Shown here: positions 16,483 through 26,788 of the stretch, one piece after another | How the letters are laid out: the number at the start of each line of letters is the position of its first letter | How positions within the stretch are numbered: the first letter of the stretch is position 1 | Assembly (NCBI RefSeq): GCF_000015025.1 | Contig: NC_008578.1 | Span: 2,190,001 to 2,222,000, forward strand | DNA length: 32,000 bases | Direction: 5' to 3' | Source: Acidothermus cellulolyticus 11B | Lineage (GTDB): Bacteria > Actinomycetota > Actinomycetes > Acidothermales > Acidothermaceae | Notes under the pieces: model-generated | What the model was told of the DNA's origin: nothing | Databases searched by the model: none | The model's input: only the letters and a program-made list of their open reading frames with translations | Position numbers and translations under genes: made by a program

Positions 16483-16751
16483 CCGCGCCTCACTCCTCCC
16501 GCCTGATTAGCGTTTCCTGGCCTTCGGCCCGGCGGCTTGCGCAGCGGCGGTATCGCAGGGCCGCCGGCGTTGCCGCACGGCTGCGACCCCGGTACCGCCC
16601 GGCCCGGGCGCCCGCGGTCGGGAACACGACCGGCCCTGGCGCACGGTCGAGTCGGGCACACGACCGACCCTGCGCCCGCGTCTGACCACTCAGCCGCCGG
16701 GTCCTGGTCGGTGACACTGTGCCGGGATGTCGCCGCCCGCGCCGCTGCCTG

Positions 16752-16822
16752 CTCCCGGGGGAGGATTCGAACCCCCATTAATGGGACCAAAACCCACTGT
16801 CCTGCCCTTAGACGACCCGGGA
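16752..16822 (-). tRNA. tRNA-Gln (anticodon TTG)
   Basis: Folded by hand as a 71-nt cloverleaf on the minus strand. Acceptor TCCCGGG/CCCGGGA; D arm GTCT-AAGGGCA-GGAC; anticodon arm GTGGG-TTTTGGT-CCCAT (anticodon TTG); T arm GGGGG-TTCGAAT-CCTCC; discriminator G. CCA is not encoded. Confidence 0.9.
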
Positions 16823-18381: not shown

Positions 18382-18608
18382 CGGTGGCGCTTGACCTGCC
18401 ATCGCCGCAACGACTGACACAGACTCAACCGGCTGGTTGAGATGCCGCGGGTCCGACATTGAGATGACCCGCCACACGTTCCGTCAAGGCGAGAGATTTG
18501 GATATTACGCAGCCTATGCCGTTACGAGCCGGCCGAATCGTTATCGGCCTCTTCCACTGGCTCCCAAGCGGTATTTCCTGGTCGTTTTGCGCGAAGAAGA
18601 CAGCTCTT

Positions 18609-20116
18609 TGTTTAAAGCCTGTCTCAATCCCCCGGCTAAAATGGGCGTACCGCGGAAACAGCTATCGCGCATGCTGGGGAGCCTGTCTCAATCCCCCGGC
18701 TAAAATGGCAGGCTTGACGGGCTCTGCTCGCGGGAAGCTGGGGAGCCTGTCTCAATCCCCCGGCTAAAATGGAAAGCACGGCGGGCTGCCGGCCTCACCC
18801 GCTGGGGAGCCTGTCTCAATCCCCCGGCTAAAATGGCGCGTCAGCCGCGGCACGATTACCGTACGCTGGGGAGCCTGTCTCAATCCCCCGGCTAAAATGG
18901 ATCTGGCCGAGTGCTCGTGGTCACGACGCTGGGGAGCCTGTCTCAATCCCCCGGCTAAAATGGCGACCAACGGAAGATCGCCGATATGATAGCTGGGGAG
19001 CCTGTCTCAATCCCCCGGCTAAAATGGCAATCATCCCACGGCTGCGCACCCCACGGCTGGGGAGCCTGTCTCAATCCCCCGGCTAAAATGGATCGGCTTG
19101 GTGCGGACCGGCGGGTTTTGCTGGGGAGCCTGTCTCAATCCCCCGGCTAAAATGGGCAGATTGATGCTAAAGCTGGGGAGATTGCTGGGGAGCCTGTCTC
19201 AATCCCCCGGCTAAAATGGGCAGATTGATGCTAAAGCTGGGGAGATTGCTGGGGAGCCTGTCTCAATCCCCCGGCTAAAATGGCTCCGGGTGGTATTCCC
19301 GCCGGGACCTGGCTGGGGAGCCTGTCTCAATCCCCCGGCTAAAATGGCCAACCGCGTACATGGTCGAGGTTTGCAGCTGGGGAGCCTGTCTCAATCCCCC
19401 GGCTAAAATGGGAAACTGTGAAAAACGGTGCCTTTGCCAGCTGGGGAGCCTGTCTCAATCCCCCGGCTAAAATGGTCCGCACCGTCGACTCGTACGCCTG
19501 CAGGCTGGGGAGCCTGTCTCAATCCCCCGGCTAAAATGGAGATCCTTGAGTGCGTGCCCGGTGCCGCGCTGGGGAGCCTGTCTCAATCCCCCGGCTAAAA
19601 TGGCGCCCGCGCCGCCTGAGCTGGTCGAATTGCTGGGGAGCCTGTCTCAATCCCCCGGCTAAAATGGTGCTCGAGCACCGGTAGCAGCTGTGTCTGCTGG
19701 GGAGCCTGTCTCAATCCCCCGGCTAAAATGGGATCCCACACCCAGCACCAGAACGCGCGGCTGGGGAGCCTGTCTCAATCCCCCGGCTAAAATGGCCACC
19801 CGGCCACCGTAGCGCGCGGCGGAGGCTGGGGAGCCTGTCTCAATCCCCCGGCTAAAATGGTCCATGTCAATTCAGTGGTGGCCGACCTGCTGGGGAGCCT
19901 GTCTCAATCCCCCGGCTAAAATGGCCGACCGAGCGAAACGCCCGGTGCGAGAGCTGGGGAGCCTGTCTCAATCCCCCGGCTAAAATGGTTGATGGCGTGC
20001 GATATTCCCCGGTGCGGCTGGGGAGCCTGTCTCAATCCCCCGGCTAAAATGGAGCGGGACTTGAACCCGCGACCAGCGGAGCTGGGGAGCCTGTCTCAAT
20101 CCCCCGGCTAAAATGG
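18609..20116 (+). CRISPR. CRISPR array: 24 x 36-bp repeats (GCTGGGGAGCCTGTCTCAATCCCCCGGCTAAAATGG), 23 spacers
   Basis: Repeat starts: 18609 (degenerate), 18673, 18737, 18801, 18865, 18928, 18992, 19056, 19120, 19184, 19248, 19312, 19376, 19440, 19504, 19568, 19632, 19696, 19760, 19825, 19889, 19953, 20017, 20081. Twenty-one spacers are 28 nt, one is 27 nt (18901-18927) and one is 29 nt (19796-19824). The strand is assigned from tracrRNA complementarity and the -10-like box in each repeat. Confidence 0.97.
18637..18642 (+). promoter_or_regulatory. -10-like hexamer TAAAAT inside the repeat (positions 29-34); recurs in all 24 repeats
   Basis: TAAAAT fits the TANNNT actinobacterial -10 consensus and ends 2 nt before each spacer. 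The coordinates give the first copy as an example. This placement is analogous to the repeat-embedded promoters established for Neisseria and Campylobacter type II-C arrays. Confidence 0.4.
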
Positions 20117-20121
20117 AGGAC

Positions 20122-20156
20122 GGCTGAGATCCCTGGGTTGACCTGGGATCTCAGCC
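20122..20156. terminator. Perfect 12-bp hairpin between the last repeat and the cas2 stop (possible bidirectional terminator)
   Basis: GGCTGAGATCCC (20122-20133) pairs with GGGATCTCAGCC (20145-20156) across an 11-nt loop. It is followed by TTGTTG on the plus strand and, after 8 nt, by a TTTT run on the minus strand. Confidence 0.5.
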
Positions 20157-20163
20157 TTGTTGA

Positions 20164-20490
20164 TCATGGAAAAATCGCTAGTTGCTGCGGTGGATCTTCC
20201 GGCGGAACGAGCCTTTCGCCAACGTAGCAGAGTGCGCGGGCCCATTCGTGATCTGAGACGGGGATCACCCGCAAGACGCCCCCCGGCGGGACGACCGCTC
20301 CGGCTGCGGATCCCACCCATCGGAACCCTGCCCCATTGATCATGTACTTCGCGTAGACACTGAGCTGAACTCGGCTGAAGCCAAGTTCCAGGAGATGATG
20401 TCGGTAGCGGTTCGCGTCCCGCCGCTGCTCCCTGGTCTGGGTAGGTAGATCGAAAGCTGCGATGGCCCACACCGGTTCGTCCTTAAGCAT
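20164..20490 (-). CDS. cas2: CRISPR-associated endoribonuclease Cas2
   Basis: 108 aa. Cas2-like N-terminus (WAIAAFDLPTQTREQRRDANRYRHHLLELGFSRVQLSVYAKY). Overlaps the cas1 end by 8 nt and lies directly next to the array. Confidence 0.93.
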   Translation of the reverse strand: MLKDEPVWAIAAFDLPTQTREQRRDANRYRHHLLELGFSRVQLSVYAKYMINGAGFRWVGSAAGAVVPPGGVLRVIPVSDHEWARALCYVGERLVPPEDPPQQLAIFP

Positions 20491-21370
20491 GCGACAGCTC
20501 CATGGCGGGTGGTCTCAGACTTCGTATCTCGCCCTCGACGTACCGACCGACCTGCTGGGCAAACCGCTCCACGGCTGTTCCCACGGTCGCTCCGCTCGCA
20601 TCAAATTGGTGATCAAGCACCGCTACAAGAAGGCGCTTAGTGGGACGGTCAAGACCCGATGCGCCCGCAGTGACGATCTCTATGACCGTCTTGTCCACCG
20701 CAGGTCGGAATGGTTCGATAAGATCGTCAACCAGCGTAAACGGATTATCGTGGCGCCGGTGCCAAAGGCCGAGGGACGGCGCGAGTCCCGCACCGACCAC
20801 CGCGCGAAGGCAACAACCACGTAAGATCGCATAGCCGTAGTCTAGGAGGCCGTTGACAACGTCACGTGCTCGCGGAACGCGACGAAAGTGCTTGTCCTGA
20901 AACAAGCGAGCCCAATACACGCGCGCGGCAGCCCCTTCAGCATTGCTTGCATCACCTGATCGAACCTGCGCCGCGAGTCGCTCCAGTTGCGCCACACCGT
21001 CTCGGCGAAGCGCCCGTAGCACAGCGGCCTGATTGCGGATCTTTGTCTTCACGATATTCATCCATGCGTTCTTTTGCCTAGGCAACGAAAGCTCCGCCTG
21101 CGCGCGATGACGAGCCGCCACCCGGTTGTGAGTCGACCACGGCAATGTAGCGGCTACCGGAACACCCCGCCAGTCGCAGTGCACCACGCCTACCCCGAAC
21201 GCCGCAGCGCGGTCAATAACGCTGCCGTGCAGGGAGACGTACGGCCCCGTAAGCATCATCGCGACGTCAACCAGCGGCACCCGCTCGTCACCGACAAGAA
21301 GTGCCCCTTGAGCCGCATGCACCTCACCGGACAGTTCGGACAGATCCACGACACGCCACGGTCCTGTCAT
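20483..21370 (-). CDS. cas1: CRISPR-associated integrase Cas1 (type II)
   Basis: Track ORF 20483..21520 trimmed to the ATG at 21370 (MTGPWRVVDLSEL...), which forms an ATGA overlap with the cas9 stop. Conserved segments: NAEGAAARVYW, LLDYGYAILRG, GLWHRRHDNPFTLVDDLIEPFRP (catalytic His and acidic residues). Confidence 0.95.
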   Translation of the reverse strand: MTGPWRVVDLSELSGEVHAAQGALLVGDERVPLVDVAMMLTGPYVSLHGSVIDRAAAFGVGVVHCDWRGVPVAATLPWSTHNRVAARHRAQAELSLPRQKNAWMNIVKTKIRNQAAVLRALRRDGVAQLERLAAQVRSGDASNAEGAAARVYWARLFQDKHFRRVPRARDVVNGLLDYGYAILRGCCLRAVVGAGLAPSLGLWHRRHDNPFTLVDDLIEPFRPAVDKTVIEIVTAGASGLDRPTKRLLVAVLDHQFDASGATVGTAVERFAQQVGRYVEGEIRSLRPPAMELSHA

Positions 21371-24300
21371 GGTGTACCGCCGCTCCAGGGATCTGCGCTC
21401 CAAGGCCGCCACGAGTACGGGAGATGACCCCGGCGCCACCGAGGTTGACCAAGCGCAGTTCGTCGGATCACCGTAAGGCCAGGGTGGCACAAGACCTTTG
21501 CGACGGTCGCCCGCCAACACCGCGGGAAGAATTGTGCGAGAATCTCCCCGGCTTCAGTCAAGGTGTCGGGACGATCGCTTCTCTCCGTGCGGAGAACCTC
21601 AGCTTGTTCCGCGGAGAGAAACGCCGGCTTAAGATTGATCCTTTTATCATCCTCAAAGCCTGTGACGACCCAATGCCGCTCCGGGAAGTACTTCAGGAAC
21701 ATACTTAAATCCCCGGCTGCCGTTGTCACACCTTCCGGGCCGAAATCCAACTCGTCTCCGGGGACAAGCCAGCCAACCTGTTTCGCATCGCCAGACTCCA
21801 CCGCCTTCACTAACGCGATGCTGGCATAGCGCCATGCCGGCGTCCACGGCGGCAACTCAGCAGTAAAGACGTCCACGCCGTCACGAAGAAGGCCAGCAAC
21901 AGCCAAGTCCGCAAGTGAAACACGCAGCAGAGCAAAGGACGGGGAATGACTGCTGCCCCAGCGGAAGACGCGGGCGTGGTGAAAAGATGCAATGTACGCC
22001 GCACCGCCGCGCACCCGTATCGAGCCTCGATCATCCGGGAACAGCTTTACCCGATCGCGAGGACCCAAGACCCTATCAGAAAGGACGATATGCCGGTTCT
22101 CGTCAGCGGGTAGCACGTCTTCACTAGGGCTCACCTTGAGGAATCGACCACCAGGATCGGTAAGGGCGAGGAAGGCGGCATAAACCTCAGGCTCGACGAT
22201 GCGTCGTAGCTCTGCTCCTTTCCACGCAGCTCCCACCGTGTGCTCCGAGAAGGCGCGAAGTGTTTCCTCATGCAGCGCGCCGGTCGGCCTCAGTCGCAAC
22301 GGTGCGGCCACGGCGATACTGTCACGGGCGGCGGTACTAATGAGTAAGTCGCCTAGACCCGAGCAGGACTCCTTCCATTGACGATAAGCTGGCGACTGAG
22401 GCTCCTCTGTTGAATGCCGGTTCACATCGCTAGGCCGACGCCAGAACTCCGCTGAGACGCGACGACTCCGCGCGTCGGCCAAGGTCTTCGCGACGCCCGG
22501 AGTCAGCGTTGTGAGCACAACCGCGTCCACGGCATGGTGCCGACGATCGAGCCGCTTCGTGCTCGTTGACTGAGCAAAAATTGCAACACGGGAGAAGAGC
22601 CTCTCGATCGAGATATCGAGCCAGCGTCTCGCTTCGGCGGTCACGCCACCGCGGAAAACCGCTACCTGAGCTACTCCGTTCTTTTCGCCGTAACTGAGCA
22701 GGCGGTCCCTTAGCGCGACAGCTGCGTAGCCGGTGGATTCAATGCTTTGAATCACTTCGGGATCGGAGGTGCGCCTTTTGAGGCGGGCGACGACAGACTT
22801 CTTGTACCGAGAGAACTCGTCGCGAGTCCAGTACATGTTGCCTGAGTATTTCAGCTTTTGGACACGATCGATCACGTCGCGAAGCTGTACTCTATTACTT
22901 GTCTCAGCCCACGACGCAAAGGGACGTCGACCTTTTTCCTTGTTGCACGCTCCGCAGGTAATCGCGAGATTCTCATGTCTGTTCGAGCCGCCGTCCGTAC
23001 GCGGGACAATGTGGTCAAGCTCCGAATTCTCCCAGCTAATGGGCGCGCCGCAGTACATGCAATGGCAGTCGTAGAGTTCGAGCAGCCGCGCACGGACCAA
23101 ATCAGCTGGAGACGGATCACTAAGGCCGGAGGCGCGAAGTTCAGCGCGGATTCGATCGTTTGCTTTCCGATGGGCACGACGGGCCGCTTCTTCTTCCGCC
23201 TGTCGTTCCCTTGACTCGCTGGCTCCCCGTGCCAACTCAACGACGATACTCTGGGGTGGACCCCAGCGCATCGTGGCTGACGAAAGAAACTTCCTCAGAA
23301 TCGCGAGATTGCGGTCCACCACCGGATGTCCAGTCGCTTCGTGCAACGCCGGTAGCGGCGGGCGCCAGTTGTCGTCAACCCCGAAACACGTTTTTCGAGC
23401 ATTATGCACGTCAACACCGTCATCCCGCATAACCCGTGTCAAACCAGACAAGGTCAGCCGACTATACGCGACGCGGCCGCTTGGTAGAGCCAGGCCCTCA
23501 AGCGCCTCGAGCTCCGCGTCCGGTAGGTGCACAAGGAGCTCTTGCTCTTCCTCGCCGGCAATAGAGTTGTCGGCCAAGGCGGCCACAAGATCTGAACGCG
23601 ACGTGCGATCCTGCTCCTGCCACCATTGAGCGAAGGTTGGAATCTTACGCCGGTTTTTAGCGATAAACTCAGCAATACGGGCCGACGTCTCGTCGAACGG
23701 AGCGAACTGTGAATATGCGAGCGACGACGGCCCGTCTTCTTCCGGCACGCTCGTCAGGTCGCTTTCATTCGGCAACTTAAGAATCTCCAGCGCAATATCT
23801 GACCACGTGAGGCTACGCTCGGTTTGAGCAAGCAACGCTTCGATCACCGCGTTGCGCTCTTCAAGGGAAAGCGGCCGTGAACCAGAGCCATCACGTATCC
23901 GCAGGTTAGCCACCGCCGCAACGATGCGATACTCCTGAAACTCCAGACACGCGCGTGACGCGCGAAGCTGACTGGGGTCAAGGGGATCGCGGCCGATGCG
24001 CTCTGCCGGGACACTTGGCCGCTTCTGACAGAACACCGCGTCGATGACGTTTGACACGACATCCTCCGGCAGCCCCTGCACATCGGCAATGCACCGCAAT
24101 TCCCAGAGCACATCCTCCTGGCGAAGACGCGTTTCAAAGGCAGTTGCGTTACTTAACTCGGCGCGGCGTCCGGCGGACTGTTGCGTTGGATTCAGCCGAA
24201 TCCCCGGTGCGCGCTGAAGCAGGTAGCCGGCCCACTGACCAACCGTCCCCGGCTCGAGCGACACGGAGTACCGGGCTTCCAGACTCTCCCGAGTGCGCTC

Positions 24301-24783
24301 CCACGAGTCGCTAGGCTGCGGTAGATTTTTGAGGTCTTTAATGGTCGTCCACGGGTTCCGCCATCCCCGGTGACGTGCCATGTGGCTCACCGCGTATCCA
24401 AGCAGGCGGCGCCGCTCGGTCTCATCGACGACGTATTCCTCGGCGAGCCGCTTACGAGCAAGCCAAGCGTCGACTGGCGACACGTTCTTGTCCGGCAACG
24501 GCGTCCAGCCGAGCTCCGAAAGAAGCATGTCGAGATCACGTAGGCGTGCGCGACGAAAGCGTCGCAGCCGGCGAGCACGGCGCGCCATGCCTCTCAGAGC
24601 CAGCCGACTCGCTCCCGATCTTTCATCCCCGACGCCGCCGTCATGTATCCACGACACTGCGGCCAAGATCTCTTTCGGCTTGTCTTCCTCATAGGAAACC
24701 GCCGCGAGGCCGATTGACCGCTCGCCTACGTCGACGCCCAGCCGCCAGGTGACAGGCACCGTCCCCACCTCAGAACCACCCAT
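21367..24783 (-). CDS. cas9: Cas9 endonuclease, type II-C, Actinomyces naeslundii-like architecture (about 1138 aa)
   Basis: RuvC-I WRLGVDVGERSIGLAAV; Arg-rich bridge helix RRARRLRRFRRARLRDL; RuvC-II IVVELARG; HNH CMYCGAPISWENSELDHIVPR...NLAITCGACNKEKG; RuvC-III RRHHAVDAVVL. Blocks I recall from AnaCas9: ARHRGWRNPW, VANLRI, GRVAYSR, FGVDDNW, HHARVFR. Start placed at the ATG at 24783 (GAGGAG upstream). The track ORF extends to 24861. Confidence 0.96.
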   Translation of the reverse strand: MGGSEVGTVPVTWRLGVDVGERSIGLAAVSYEEDKPKEILAAVSWIHDGGVGDERSGASRLALRGMARRARRLRRFRRARLRDLDMLLSELGWTPLPDKNVSPVDAWLARKRLAEEYVVDETERRRLLGYAVSHMARHRGWRNPWTTIKDLKNLPQPSDSWERTRESLEARYSVSLEPGTVGQWAGYLLQRAPGIRLNPTQQSAGRRAELSNATAFETRLRQEDVLWELRCIADVQGLPEDVVSNVIDAVFCQKRPSVPAERIGRDPLDPSQLRASRACLEFQEYRIVAAVANLRIRDGSGSRPLSLEERNAVIEALLAQTERSLTWSDIALEILKLPNESDLTSVPEEDGPSSLAYSQFAPFDETSARIAEFIAKNRRKIPTFAQWWQEQDRTSRSDLVAALADNSIAGEEEQELLVHLPDAELEALEGLALPSGRVAYSRLTLSGLTRVMRDDGVDVHNARKTCFGVDDNWRPPLPALHEATGHPVVDRNLAILRKFLSSATMRWGPPQSIVVELARGASESRERQAEEEAARRAHRKANDRIRAELRASGLSDPSPADLVRARLLELYDCHCMYCGAPISWENSELDHIVPRTDGGSNRHENLAITCGACNKEKGRRPFASWAETSNRVQLRDVIDRVQKLKYSGNMYWTRDEFSRYKKSVVARLKRRTSDPEVIQSIESTGYAAVALRDRLLSYGEKNGVAQVAVFRGGVTAEARRWLDISIERLFSRVAIFAQSTSTKRLDRRHHAVDAVVLTTLTPGVAKTLADARSRRVSAEFWRRPSDVNRHSTEEPQSPAYRQWKESCSGLGDLLISTAARDSIAVAAPLRLRPTGALHEETLRAFSEHTVGAAWKGAELRRIVEPEVYAAFLALTDPGGRFLKVSPSEDVLPADENRHIVLSDRVLGPRDRVKLFPDDRGSIRVRGGAAYIASFHHARVFRWGSSHSPSFALLRVSLADLAVAGLLRDGVDVFTAELPPWTPAWRYASIALVKAVESGDAKQVGWLVPGDELDFGPEGVTTAAGDLSMFLKYFPERHWVVTGFEDDKRINLKPAFLSAEQAEVLRTERSDRPDTLTEAGEILAQFFPRCWRATVAKVLCHPGLTVIRRTALGQPRWRRGHLPYSWRPWSADPWSGGTP

Positions 24784-24912
24784 GGTCGGATCAGCTCCTC
24801 GTCCGTACTCAACGCCTTTGATGATCAGTTGCAAGCTCACGATAGCGACATGGACCGACATAATGCACGGATTTTTTGAGACGCAATACCTTGCGATCAG
24901 AGCGGCGCGATG

Positions 24913-24918
24913 TATACT
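24913..24918 (+). promoter_or_regulatory. -10 hexamer TATACT for the predicted tracrRNA
   Basis: TATACT lies 6-8 nt upstream of the first anti-repeat nucleotide, in the cas9-upstream intergenic region and divergent from cas9. Confidence 0.45.
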
Positions 24919-24922
24919 CGCA

Positions 24923-24999
24923 GCGAGACAGGCTACCTAGCAAGACCCCTTCGTGGGGTCGCATTCTTCACCCCCTCGCAGCAGCGAGGGGGTTCGTTT
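24923..24999 (+). ncRNA. Predicted tracrRNA (anti-repeat, nexus hairpin, terminator hairpin)
   Basis: 24925-24941 (GAGACAGGCTACCTAGC) is complementary to repeat positions 1-17: 15 Watson-Crick pairs, 1 G-U and 1 mismatch. Next come AAG and the hairpin GACCCC-TTCGT-GGGGTC (24944-24960), a 10-nt linker, and the hairpin CCCCCTCGC-AGCA-GCGAGGGGG (24971-24992) with a TTCGTTT tail. The ends are approximate. Confidence 0.8.
24971..24999 (+). terminator. Intrinsic terminator of the tracrRNA
   Basis: 9-bp GC-rich stem with a 4-nt loop, immediately followed by the T-rich tract TTCGTTT. Confidence 0.7.
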
Positions 25000-25015
25000 A
25001 TGATCACGGATGCCA

Positions 25016-25197
25016 CCCGCCCGCAGCGTCAGAGACTCGTCCGCGGCGTCTCGTCCGCAGCCTCAGGGACCGTGACACTAACGCCCAGCGAATCACTCTC
25101 ACGCACGCCCGCGGGATCGCCGAACGCACCGGCGACACCGACGCCGAGCCAGCTCACGCCAGGCCGAGCAGCCGGGGCAAGTGCCGGGGCGGCGGAT
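25016..25197. repeat. Right copy of the direct repeat bracketing the CRISPR-Cas cassette (includes the genuine 3' end of the DUF885 gene)
   Basis: See the left copy for the alignment. This copy holds the real stop codon (25154-25156) and the last ~14 codons of the 25154..26788 gene, plus about 138 bp of downstream sequence. Confidence 0.92.
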
Positions 25198-26788
25198 TCC
25201 CAAAACTCAGCAGCGTGTCGTGCAGACGACGGTCGCTCCACTCCGGGTGGGCGGCGCGAAGCTGCGCCGCCACCTCGCTCACCTCGAGAACTCCGACGTG
25301 GTAGGTCGACAACTGCGCGCTCGTGAGCAGTGCGCGTCGCCACTTGCCGACCGCCTCCCCCTCCTCTTGGTACCCGCGGTCGCGCAGCAACCGCAGCGCT
25401 TCCTCCTCCGTCAGCCCCTCGCAATGCACCCCTACGTCAAGCACCGCGTTCAACGCCGTCCGCAACCGCATTTTCAGCTGTTGCATCGCCACGGCAAGGC
25501 CGCCGAACCCGTACCGCGCCATCACCTCTTCGGCGTACACCGCCCACCCTTCGACAAACGGCCCGCTCCAGAACGCCCGGCGTACCAAGGTCGGAGTTTC
25601 CGACCGCCGGGCGTGCGCTAATTGGAGCATGTGGCCGGGCATGGCTTCATGCACGACGAGATTGCGCAGCGCATGCACGTTGTACTCCCGGTAAAACGAC
25701 GCAACCCGTTCCGAGGGCCACGAAGCAGGAGCCGGGGAAATCGCGAAAAAAGTAGGCGTATCCGGTGGATCCAGCGGTCCCGGCGGTTCGCAATACGCCA
25801 CGGCGACCCCGCGGTGAATCTCCGGCATGACGATGATGTCGAGCGGATCGGCGTAGTATGTGACCAACTCGCGTCCTTGGACGAACTCCGTCGCCTCAGC
25901 CAACGCGGAGCGTGCTTCGGTGATGACCGTCTCGTCATTGGGAGCCTGCTCGGCCAATCGGGCGAAAATCTCTTGTGGTGAACCGCCGAGCCGGCCCGCT
26001 GTCTCCACCATTGCCTGCTCAACCCGCTGAACCTCCGCCCACGCAGCGGCGGCGACGTCTTCCGGGCGCCGCGCGACATCCAACACCAGCGCGAGTTTCG
26101 CCGTGTACAGCTCCGGTCCGAGCCGTGGATCGCCGTCCGCTTGGTCGAGCTGCTCACACAGCCACGCCAGGTGGGTGCGGACCGCTTCGACCGCCGGCGC
26201 CAACCGCTCGGCAACCAGGCCGGCGTACGGACTTCCCTGTGCGTGCGCGGGAATTTCGTCCTCCAACAGCCGCAGCGTTCCGCTGAACTGGTCGATGGCC
26301 GTCTCCACGTGCACGCGCGGCATGTCACGGGACGACGCGCGCGCCGCCGCCAGCTGTTCCGGAACCGCGGCGAGCCGGCCGGCCAAGGCGCGAAGCCGGT
26401 CATCGAGTGGAGCGAAATCCCGGGCAAGGAGCAGATACAGCGCCGTGCCGGGGTTGGCCTGCAGCGGATTCCACTCGTGTTCCCGTAGCGTCTCCAACTC
26501 GAAAAGCCGTTCCGCAACCTTGTTGCGGAGGATCTCCGCGTCGACGCGGTGGCCGACGGGCAGTCGGTCGAGCGGGTACCGCTCCAGACGGGTGAGGACG
26601 GCGCGCAGCGCCCGGATCTCGTCGTTGACCGCTGCGGGCCGCAGGTCCTCGAGCCGGTCATCAAACCGGTGATCGCCGATTGCGGTGGCGAGTGAGGGCT
26701 GGTACGCAAGCAGCTGGTCGACCGCCTCCGAGGCGAAACGTTCAAAGTCGGCCGCCGGCTCAGGGGTGGACGCAACCGTCATGGGCAT
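25154..26788 (-). CDS. DUF885-family protein (putative metallopeptidase-like)
   Basis: 544 aa. The size and the HEAMPGHMLQ motif (HExxPGH) are characteristic of DUF885 as I recall it. An alternative ATG lies at 26782. Confidence 0.8.
   Translation of the reverse strand: MPMTVASTPEPAADFERFASEAVDQLLAYQPSLATAIGDHRFDDRLEDLRPAAVNDEIRALRAVLTRLERYPLDRLPVGHRVDAEILRNKVAERLFELETLREHEWNPLQANPGTALYLLLARDFAPLDDRLRALAGRLAAVPEQLAAARASSRDMPRVHVETAIDQFSGTLRLLEDEIPAHAQGSPYAGLVAERLAPAVEAVRTHLAWLCEQLDQADGDPRLGPELYTAKLALVLDVARRPEDVAAAAWAEVQRVEQAMVETAGRLGGSPQEIFARLAEQAPNDETVITEARSALAEATEFVQGRELVTYYADPLDIIVMPEIHRGVAVAYCEPPGPLDPPDTPTFFAISPAPASWPSERVASFYREYNVHALRNLVVHEAMPGHMLQLAHARRSETPTLVRRAFWSGPFVEGWAVYAEEVMARYGFGGLAVAMQQLKMRLRTALNAVLDVGVHCEGLTEEEALRLLRDRGYQEEGEAVGKWRRALLTSAQLSTYHVGVLEVSEVAAQLRAAHPEWSDRRLHDTLLSFGNPPPRHLPRLLGLA

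Follow-up and report, generated by a model that had tools for sequence, protein, structure and literature searches.

The 32,000-nt stretch of Acidothermus cellulolyticus DNA analysed in the current study (the window) carries a CRISPR-Cas locus, the features of which are listed in table 1. The Cas9 protein encoded there aligned over all 1138 residues with chain A of PDB entry 8D2K (2584 bits, 100% match), and also matched entries 6WBR and 6WC0 over residues 1-1138. These entries are the heat-tolerant Cas9 of A. cellulolyticus (AceCas9), which is classed as type II-C in the literature. According to the ORF map and the NCBIfam hits, the gene content is that of type II-C, i.e. cas9, cas1 and cas2 only; neither csn2 nor cas4 was found at the locus, where the array abuts cas2 and a DUF885 gene lies upstream of cas9. 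Cas1, cas2 and the array are all situated downstream of cas9.

Table 1. Cas genes, CRISPR array and elements of the tracrRNA gene in the window (position 1 is the first nucleotide of the window).
Feature	Position	Strand	Evidence
CRISPR array, 24 repeats of 36 nt (GCTGGGGAGCCTGTCTCAATCCCCCGGCTAAAATGG), 23 spacers of 27-29 nt	18609-20116	+	
cas2	20164-20490	-	TIGR01573
cas1 (type II)	20483-21520	-	TIGR03639, E 1.6e-63
cas9 (AceCas9, 1138 aa)	21367-24783	-	PDB 8D2K over residues 1-1138; TIGR01865
Predicted sigma-70-type promoter, TTGCGA-16 nt-TATACT	24891-24918	+	Promoter scan
-10 box, TATACT	24913-24918	+	Sequence reading
Anti-repeat, 17 nt, GAGACAGGCTACCTAGC, pairs with repeat nt 1-17	24925-24941	+	Search, pairing scan, fold
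Connecting loop 1 (CL1), AA	24942-24943	+	CL1 (A49-A50) in the crystal structure
Stem-loop 1 (SL1, 'nexus' hairpin), GACCCC UUCGU GGGGUC, GACCCCTTCGTGGGGTC	24944-24960	+	Fold; SL1 (G51-C67)
Connecting loop 2 (CL2), GCATTCTTC (RNA GCAUUCUUC)	24961-24969	+	CL2 (G68-C76)
Stem-loop 2 (SL2) hairpin, ACCCCCTCGCAGCAGCGAGGGGGT, 10 bp, loop AGCA	24970-24993	+	Terminator scan; SL2 in the structure
SL2 with UCGUUUAU tail, intrinsic terminator	24970-24999	+	Terminator scan

A preliminary description of this DNA had placed a tracrRNA, divergent from cas9, at 24913-24999. The site is intergenic, flanked by the start of cas9 (24783) on one side and the stop of the DUF885 gene (25154) on the other. The orientation was given correctly, as cas9 is encoded on the minus strand and the RNA, with a predicted start near 24925, on the plus strand. 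Two plus-strand ORFs that run across the site (24876-25304 and 24910-25326) had no Pfam hits, and were rejected as protein-coding genes. The neighbouring DUF885 gene (25154-26788, minus strand), which is convergent with the tracrRNA, encodes a full-length protein (Pfam E 5e-96) with no obvious link to CRISPR.

Anti-repeat, promoter and hairpins

A tracrRNA is expected to carry an anti-repeat against the spacer-proximal end of the repeat, and a single such site was present in the window. When repeat nt 1-17 were searched for with up to three mismatches, the 23 full copies in the array and one further site were found, at 24925-24941 on the minus strand with two mismatches; by chance, 0.16 matches would be expected per whole window. 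This result bears out the earlier claim that the site is the only repeat-complementary sequence outside the array. Inspection by eye and folding gave 15 Watson-Crick pairs, a G4-U wobble and a G7xA mismatch, the last forming a 1x1 internal loop in the folded duplex, and the one G-U pair and one G/A mismatch originally read from the sequence were therefore correct.

Apart from the array itself, nothing on the two strands of the 32-kb window matched repeat nt 18-36. An anti-repeat longer than 17 nt was rejected, since nothing complementary to this part of the repeat lies upstream of 24925. Additional upstream pairs offered by RNAduplex were likewise rejected, as they would require a 13-nt loop across the -10 box.

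In a gapless, unanchored pairing scan that allowed G-U pairs and covered both strands and both senses of the repeat, 24925-24941 ranked first with a score of 14, but mononucleotide shuffles of the window scored 13-20.5 in the same scan. Complementarity alone is therefore not decisive for this site, as shuffled sequence reaches similar values when the scoring is lenient. Nor was 24925-24941 singled out by an RNAduplex energy scan of the whole window with the repeat in both senses. The scan was uninformative because the DNA of the window is GC-rich (67% GC), and duplex energy was rejected as a measure, its best hits being loop-rich pairings within coding regions. The weight of the case rests instead on the anchoring of the pairing at repeat nt 1, the position next to cas9, the structured tail, the homologues and published experiments.

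Upstream of the anti-repeat, the TATACT motif pointed out in the preliminary description was recovered by the promoter scan as part of a TTGCGA-16-TATACT promoter (1 found, compared with 0.1 expected), which is the only promoter-like site in 24500-25500. The predicted -10 box is separated from the anti-repeat by 6 nt. On the 3' side, a 78-nt RNA folded into two hairpins (z = -4.05 relative to shuffles), and the terminator scan detected a terminator-like hairpin at 24970-24993, followed by TCGTTTAT. The U-tail that follows SL2 is weak (UCGUUUAU). A structured 3' tail ending in a terminator hairpin, as is typical of a tracrRNA, was thus supported by the folds, by the terminator scan and by the covariation of 16/16 modelled pairs described below.

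The details of the tail needed some correction. The GACCCC/GGGGTC hairpin was present as proposed, but the linker before it is AA and not AAG, the G being the first nucleotide of the hairpin. The second, terminator-like hairpin was also confirmed, with a stem of 10 pairs (one A-U pair and nine G-C-rich ones) in place of the nine originally counted. Folding of the fused sgRNA that had been proposed gave exactly the structure drawn (z = -8.7): the duplex is interrupted by a 1x1 loop, and is followed by AA, a hairpin of 6 bp, a linker of 9 nt and a hairpin of 10 bp. An Rfam scan of 24900-25010 with E values up to 10 returned no family match, the curated tracrRNA family included; the actinobacterial tracrRNA family is absent from Rfam 15.

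The published guide RNA and its relatives

Templates used for in vitro transcription of AceCas9 sgRNAs consist of the guide, GCTGGGGAGCCT, GAAA and AGGCTACCTAGCAAGACCCCTTCGTGGGGTCGCATTCTTCACCCCCTCGCAGCAGCGAGGGGGTTC (Das et al. 2020, PMC7733487 supplement). The first constant part, GCTGGGGAGCCT, is identical to repeat nt 1-12, and the last 66 nt, AGGCTACCTAGCAAGACCCCTTCGTGGGGTCGCATTCTTCACCCCCTCGCAGCAGCGAGGGGGTTC, are identical to window positions 24930-24995 (66/66 nt, single occurrence), with 24930-24941 forming the anti-repeat strand of the published sgRNA. In the crystal structures 6WBR and 6WC0 (Das et al. 2020 Nat Commun, PMC7733487), the sgRNA was described as a repeat:anti-repeat duplex, an AA connecting loop, a 17-nt SL1, a 9-nt connecting loop 2 and SL2. 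These element boundaries coincide one-to-one with the predicted fold over 24930-24993. CL1 (A49-A50) makes base-specific contacts to Cas9 in the crystal structure, and CL2 (G68-C76) is buried within the protein (PMC7733487).

AceCas9 was further reported to cleave DNA with sgRNAs that carry the 24930-24995 sequence, in vitro as well as in E. coli; in a mutational library, all three stems and both linkers proved to be required (PMC7733487). The same 94-nt sgRNA is contained in the cryo-EM structures (Das et al. 2023 Nat Catal, PDB 8D2K-8D2Q).

The published scaffold and the RNA encoded in the window are the same molecule with the same layout (duplex, AA, SL1, 9-nt linker, SL2). They differ in that the published sgRNA is engineered, with a 12-bp duplex, a GAAA loop and an end at ...GGGGGUUC, whereas the genomic gene has a 17-bp duplex, a promoter of its own and a UCGUUUAU tail. 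The architecture of the sgRNA put forward in the preliminary description was accordingly sound, but of the full 17-bp duplex, only 12 bp are used in the published sgRNAs. With cas9 being AceCas9 and 24930-24995 the published scaffold, the feature is real, its coordinates are right and its interpretation as a tracrRNA was correct. The label 'de novo' has to be dropped, since the RNA had already been published, used as an sgRNA and solved in crystal and cryo-EM structures. The first AceCas9 paper, reportedly that of Tsui et al. (2017, ACS Synth Biol), is said to have dealt with the tracrRNA/sgRNA scaffold. No expression data or transcript mapping for the native AceCas9 tracrRNA was found in the AceCas9 literature surveyed, to which the original 2017 paper did not belong.

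Because the AceCas9 guide RNA was already published, engineered and solved, the discovery value of the present reading is small. It does serve as a check of method: A. cellulolyticus was among twelve loci without a detectable anti-repeat in the first systematic survey (Chylinski et al. 2013), and the tracrRNA listed there as undetectable was recovered by reading the raw sequence, with its architecture accurate to the nucleotide. Older screens do miss this short anti-repeat.

For the comparative analysis, 162 loci with relatives of AceCas9 (30-48% identity) were taken from genome and metagenome collections, the closest metagenomic relatives being added by exact look-up. A first covariance model, whose seed consisted of the window and three relatives, detected homologues of the RNA beside cas9 in 43 loci, 33 of them distinct. 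Among the 33 distinct homologues, 95.7% of the pair cells were standard pairs and 16/16 modelled pairs changed on both sides; the covariation score was 0.76, compared with 0.21 for shuffles and 0.07-0.12 when the partners were slid. Compensatory changes were seen at 6/6 modelled pairs of SL1, and 10/10 pairs of SL2 covaried (98.5% of cells paired).

The AA(G) linker was unpaired and conserved, with AA retained in the 33 distinct homologues, and the linker motif GAAUUCUCC was unpaired and conserved throughout the family. Such conserved unpaired linkers fit the reported base-specific contacts to Cas9. It was also observed that the bases immediately after SL2 (24994-24999), UCGUU, were kept in nearly all of the 33 distinct homologues, which exceeds what a plain U-tail needs.

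A second covariance model was built from 24 relatives with the window sequence excluded, and was run with filters off. It gave a single match above noise in the window, at 24925-25003 on the plus strand (62.1 bits, E 3.7e-13); as its relatives had been chosen with the first, window-seeded model, the test is partly dependent. A covariance model that spans the whole family of actinobacterial type II-C tracrRNAs could aid in annotating the guide RNAs of compact or thermostable Cas9s that are as yet uncharacterised.

Wherever a locus had both a tracrRNA and an array, the 5' portion of the tracrRNA matched the repeat of its own locus. The sequences of these pairs differ between loci, e.g. GCUGGGGAGCCUGUCUC with GAGACAGGCUACCUAGC in the window, GCUGGGGAACCUAUCC with GGAUAGGUUACUCAGU in L082, GUUGGGGAAGUCGUUCA with UGAACGACUUACCCAAC in L166, and GUUUCAAUCUCUCUCCC with GGGAGAGACAUUGAAAU in L025. 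An interruption at repeat nt 7-8 recurred among the closest relatives. The relatives also carried a -10 hexamer of the TANNNT type 5-7 nt upstream of the anti-repeat: TATACT in L083, TACAAT in L164, TATGCT in L166, and TATACT-ggtagc-GACTGAATTCCTAGT in Actinomyces naeslundii (L042), with a like spacing in a Corynebacterium locus (L013).

Taken together, we consider it almost certain that the plus strand from 24925 to about 24999 encodes the tracrRNA of the A. cellulolyticus type II-C CRISPR-Cas9 system (AceCas9). The promoter, the start near 24925, the 3' end and any processing by RNase III are predictions. Transcription would most likely start about 7 nt after TATACT, so that the RNA would begin directly with the 17-nt anti-repeat, and would most likely stop at the GC-rich SL2, giving an RNA of about 75 nt.

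The native primary transcript could instead be longer, through an upstream start or read-through of SL2, and be trimmed by RNase III or other nucleases, so that the 75-nt form would be a processed product. For many characterised tracrRNAs, 5' extensions as well as forms processed by RNase III are indeed known (Chylinski 2013), and the terminator tail is weak. However, there is no further repeat complementarity upstream of 24925, the sole promoter-like site in 24500-25500 sets the start near 24925, and the -10 box of the relatives is likewise placed 5-7 nt before short anti-repeats, which makes a longer precursor rather unlikely. That the site is a chance 17-mer followed by a hairpin that merely terminates transcription or insulates cas9 from the convergent DUF885 gene, with no tracrRNA, is exceedingly improbable: shuffled sequence does attain the lenient unanchored score of 14, RNAduplex energies leave the site undistinguished and the hairpin is ~160 nt downstream of the DUF885 stop, but the same 66 nt are a functional published sgRNA scaffold bound to Cas9 in crystal and cryo-EM structures, the relatives-only covariance model matches the site (E 4e-13) with covarying hairpins and anti-repeat, and on the minus strand the hairpin is followed by GAAGAAUGC, which contains no U run.

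Direction of the array and 5' ends of the crRNAs

The tracrRNA pairs with repeat nt 1-17, the spacer-proximal end when crRNAs are read from the plus strand, and the preliminary description had concluded from this that the array is transcribed in the plus direction. That direction was upheld by the plus-sense sgRNA, which is active, by a -10 box conserved in the repeats and by the degenerate first repeat of the array; because the sgRNA is functional in the plus sense, the crRNAs are taken to come from this strand. Arrays of type II-C systems are known to be transcribed opposite to the cas operon (Chylinski et al. 2013).

Read against the direction of cas9, 41/41 distinct repeats of 36 nt from the clade had a TANNNT motif at nt 29-34, which was preceded in 32/41 by TG at nt 26-27. 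The TANNNT pattern was absent at other offsets and in the reverse sense among these 41 repeats. In the repeat of the window the -10-like box at nt 29-34 is TAAAAT, without the TG of an extended -10. Repeats of type II-C arrays carry their own promoters, as is known from work on Neisseria.

The leftmost repeat (18609-18644, TGTTTAAAGCC...) was mutated at nt 1, 2, 4, 5, 6 and 7 only, i.e. at the end that pairs with the tracrRNA, and its -10 box was intact. A mutated 'extra' first repeat, which avoids an extraneous crRNA, has been described for type II-C arrays in the literature, and the mutations seen here fit this pattern. Transcription of the crRNAs from the minus strand, co-directional with cas9 and served by a different anti-repeat elsewhere in the genome, can be given next to no credence, for although array-orientation tools often assume co-directional transcription (Chylinski 2013) and the anti-repeat search covered 32 kb of the genome, repeat nt 18-36 and their complement were unmatched outside the array in this window, the plus-sense sgRNA is active, the conserved TANNNT exists in the plus sense only, and the degenerate repeat lies at the plus-sense 5' end, as type II-C predicts.

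With the array read from the plus strand, opposite to cas9, crRNA transcription would probably start from the TAAAAT in each repeat. A start ~7 nt past the hexamer would fall at about spacer nt 5 and leave a guide of ~24 of the 28 nt. The repeat sequences thus suggest that every repeat has its own promoter and that the guides are ~24 nt long; AceCas9 guides of 24 nt have been employed by others. The first 17 nt of the repeat 3' of each spacer would then pair with the anti-repeat, and Cas9 would bind the duplex, the AA linker, SL1, the 9-nt linker and SL2, and cleave guide-matching DNA beside a 5'-NNNCC-3' PAM. Published work with sgRNA fusions has demonstrated both binding and cleavage by AceCas9.

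The promoter of the tracrRNA lies directly next to a minimal anti-repeat, which has 17 nt and is interrupted by a mismatch, and each repeat has a -10 box of its own; it is on these grounds that we propose that the 5' ends of both guide RNAs are set by transcription initiation and not by processing, and that this layout is clade-wide. The chances that this proposal is right appear about even. If true, it would explain why anti-repeats were missed in Acidothermus, Corynebacterium diphtheriae and Bifidobacterium (Chylinski et al. 2013).

Several other features were observed in and around the array. A hairpin, GGCCGAatcgttaTCGGCC, followed by TCTTCC lies at about 18530-18555, ~55 nt upstream of the array, and is a possible counterpart of the insulating terminator reported in type II-C leaders. 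Another long hairpin, GGCTGAGATCCCTGG...CCTGGGATCTCAGCC, nearly perfect and followed by TTGTTG, separates the last repeat from the cas2 stop (20122-20155), and may terminate transcription of the array, of the cas operon, or of both. An identical 28-nt spacer, GCAGATTGATGCTAAAGCTGGGGAGATT, occupies two adjacent units (19156-19183 and 19220-19247), and contains GCTGGGGAG, the start of the repeat. The cas-proximal, presumably newest spacer (20053-20080, AGCGGGACTTGAACCCGCGACCAGCGGA) resembles the reverse complement of the T-arm and acceptor end of a tRNA, and overlaps weak tRNA-like Rfam hits; it does not correspond to the tRNA-Gln gene in the window (16751-16822).

Comparison with other type II-C systems

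The actinobacterial type II-C clade, which includes Actinomyces naeslundii (AnaCas9), Corynebacterium, Bifidobacterium and metagenomic loci, has the same RNA family as the window. Its tracrRNAs share the AA(G) linker, SL1, the GAAUUCUCC linker and SL2, with anti-repeats mostly of 14-20 nt, although the Cas9 proteins are merely 30-48% identical to AceCas9.

The position of the tracrRNA gene varies within this clade. It is divergent from cas9, as in the window, in the subclade of AceCas9 (L081, L082, L163, L164, L168, L083 and L166); the divergent orientation was therefore rejected as a peculiarity of Acidothermus, the closest relatives being oriented alike. In L083 an array sits upstream of cas9. 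In most other members of the clade the tracrRNA gene is upstream of cas9 and co-directional with it, and in L101 it lies between cas2 and the array. Judged from these gene orders, its position and orientation have been reshuffled several times, at least three, within the clade, and moving or flipping the gene is harmless for a trans-acting RNA.

The type II-C systems of Neisseria meningitidis and Campylobacter jejuni resemble that of the window in having a cas9-cas1-cas2 operon with an array transcribed in the opposite direction, new spacers at the transcription-distal end and a mutated 'extra' first repeat. Their Cas9 proteins are distant from AceCas9 (PDB E-values of 1e-12 to 1e-18, over partial stretches). 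In Neisseria, the 5' ends of the crRNAs are reportedly set by a -10 box that each repeat carries in its 3' end (Zhang et al. 2013), and the AceCas9 array, as judged from its repeats, may have a box of this type. The tracrRNA gene of Neisseria is located between cas9 and cas1, and the anti-repeat of this RNA is longer and undergoes processing by RNase III. The tracrRNA of AceCas9, in contrast, is encoded upstream of and divergent from cas9, with a 17-nt anti-repeat at its predicted 5' end.
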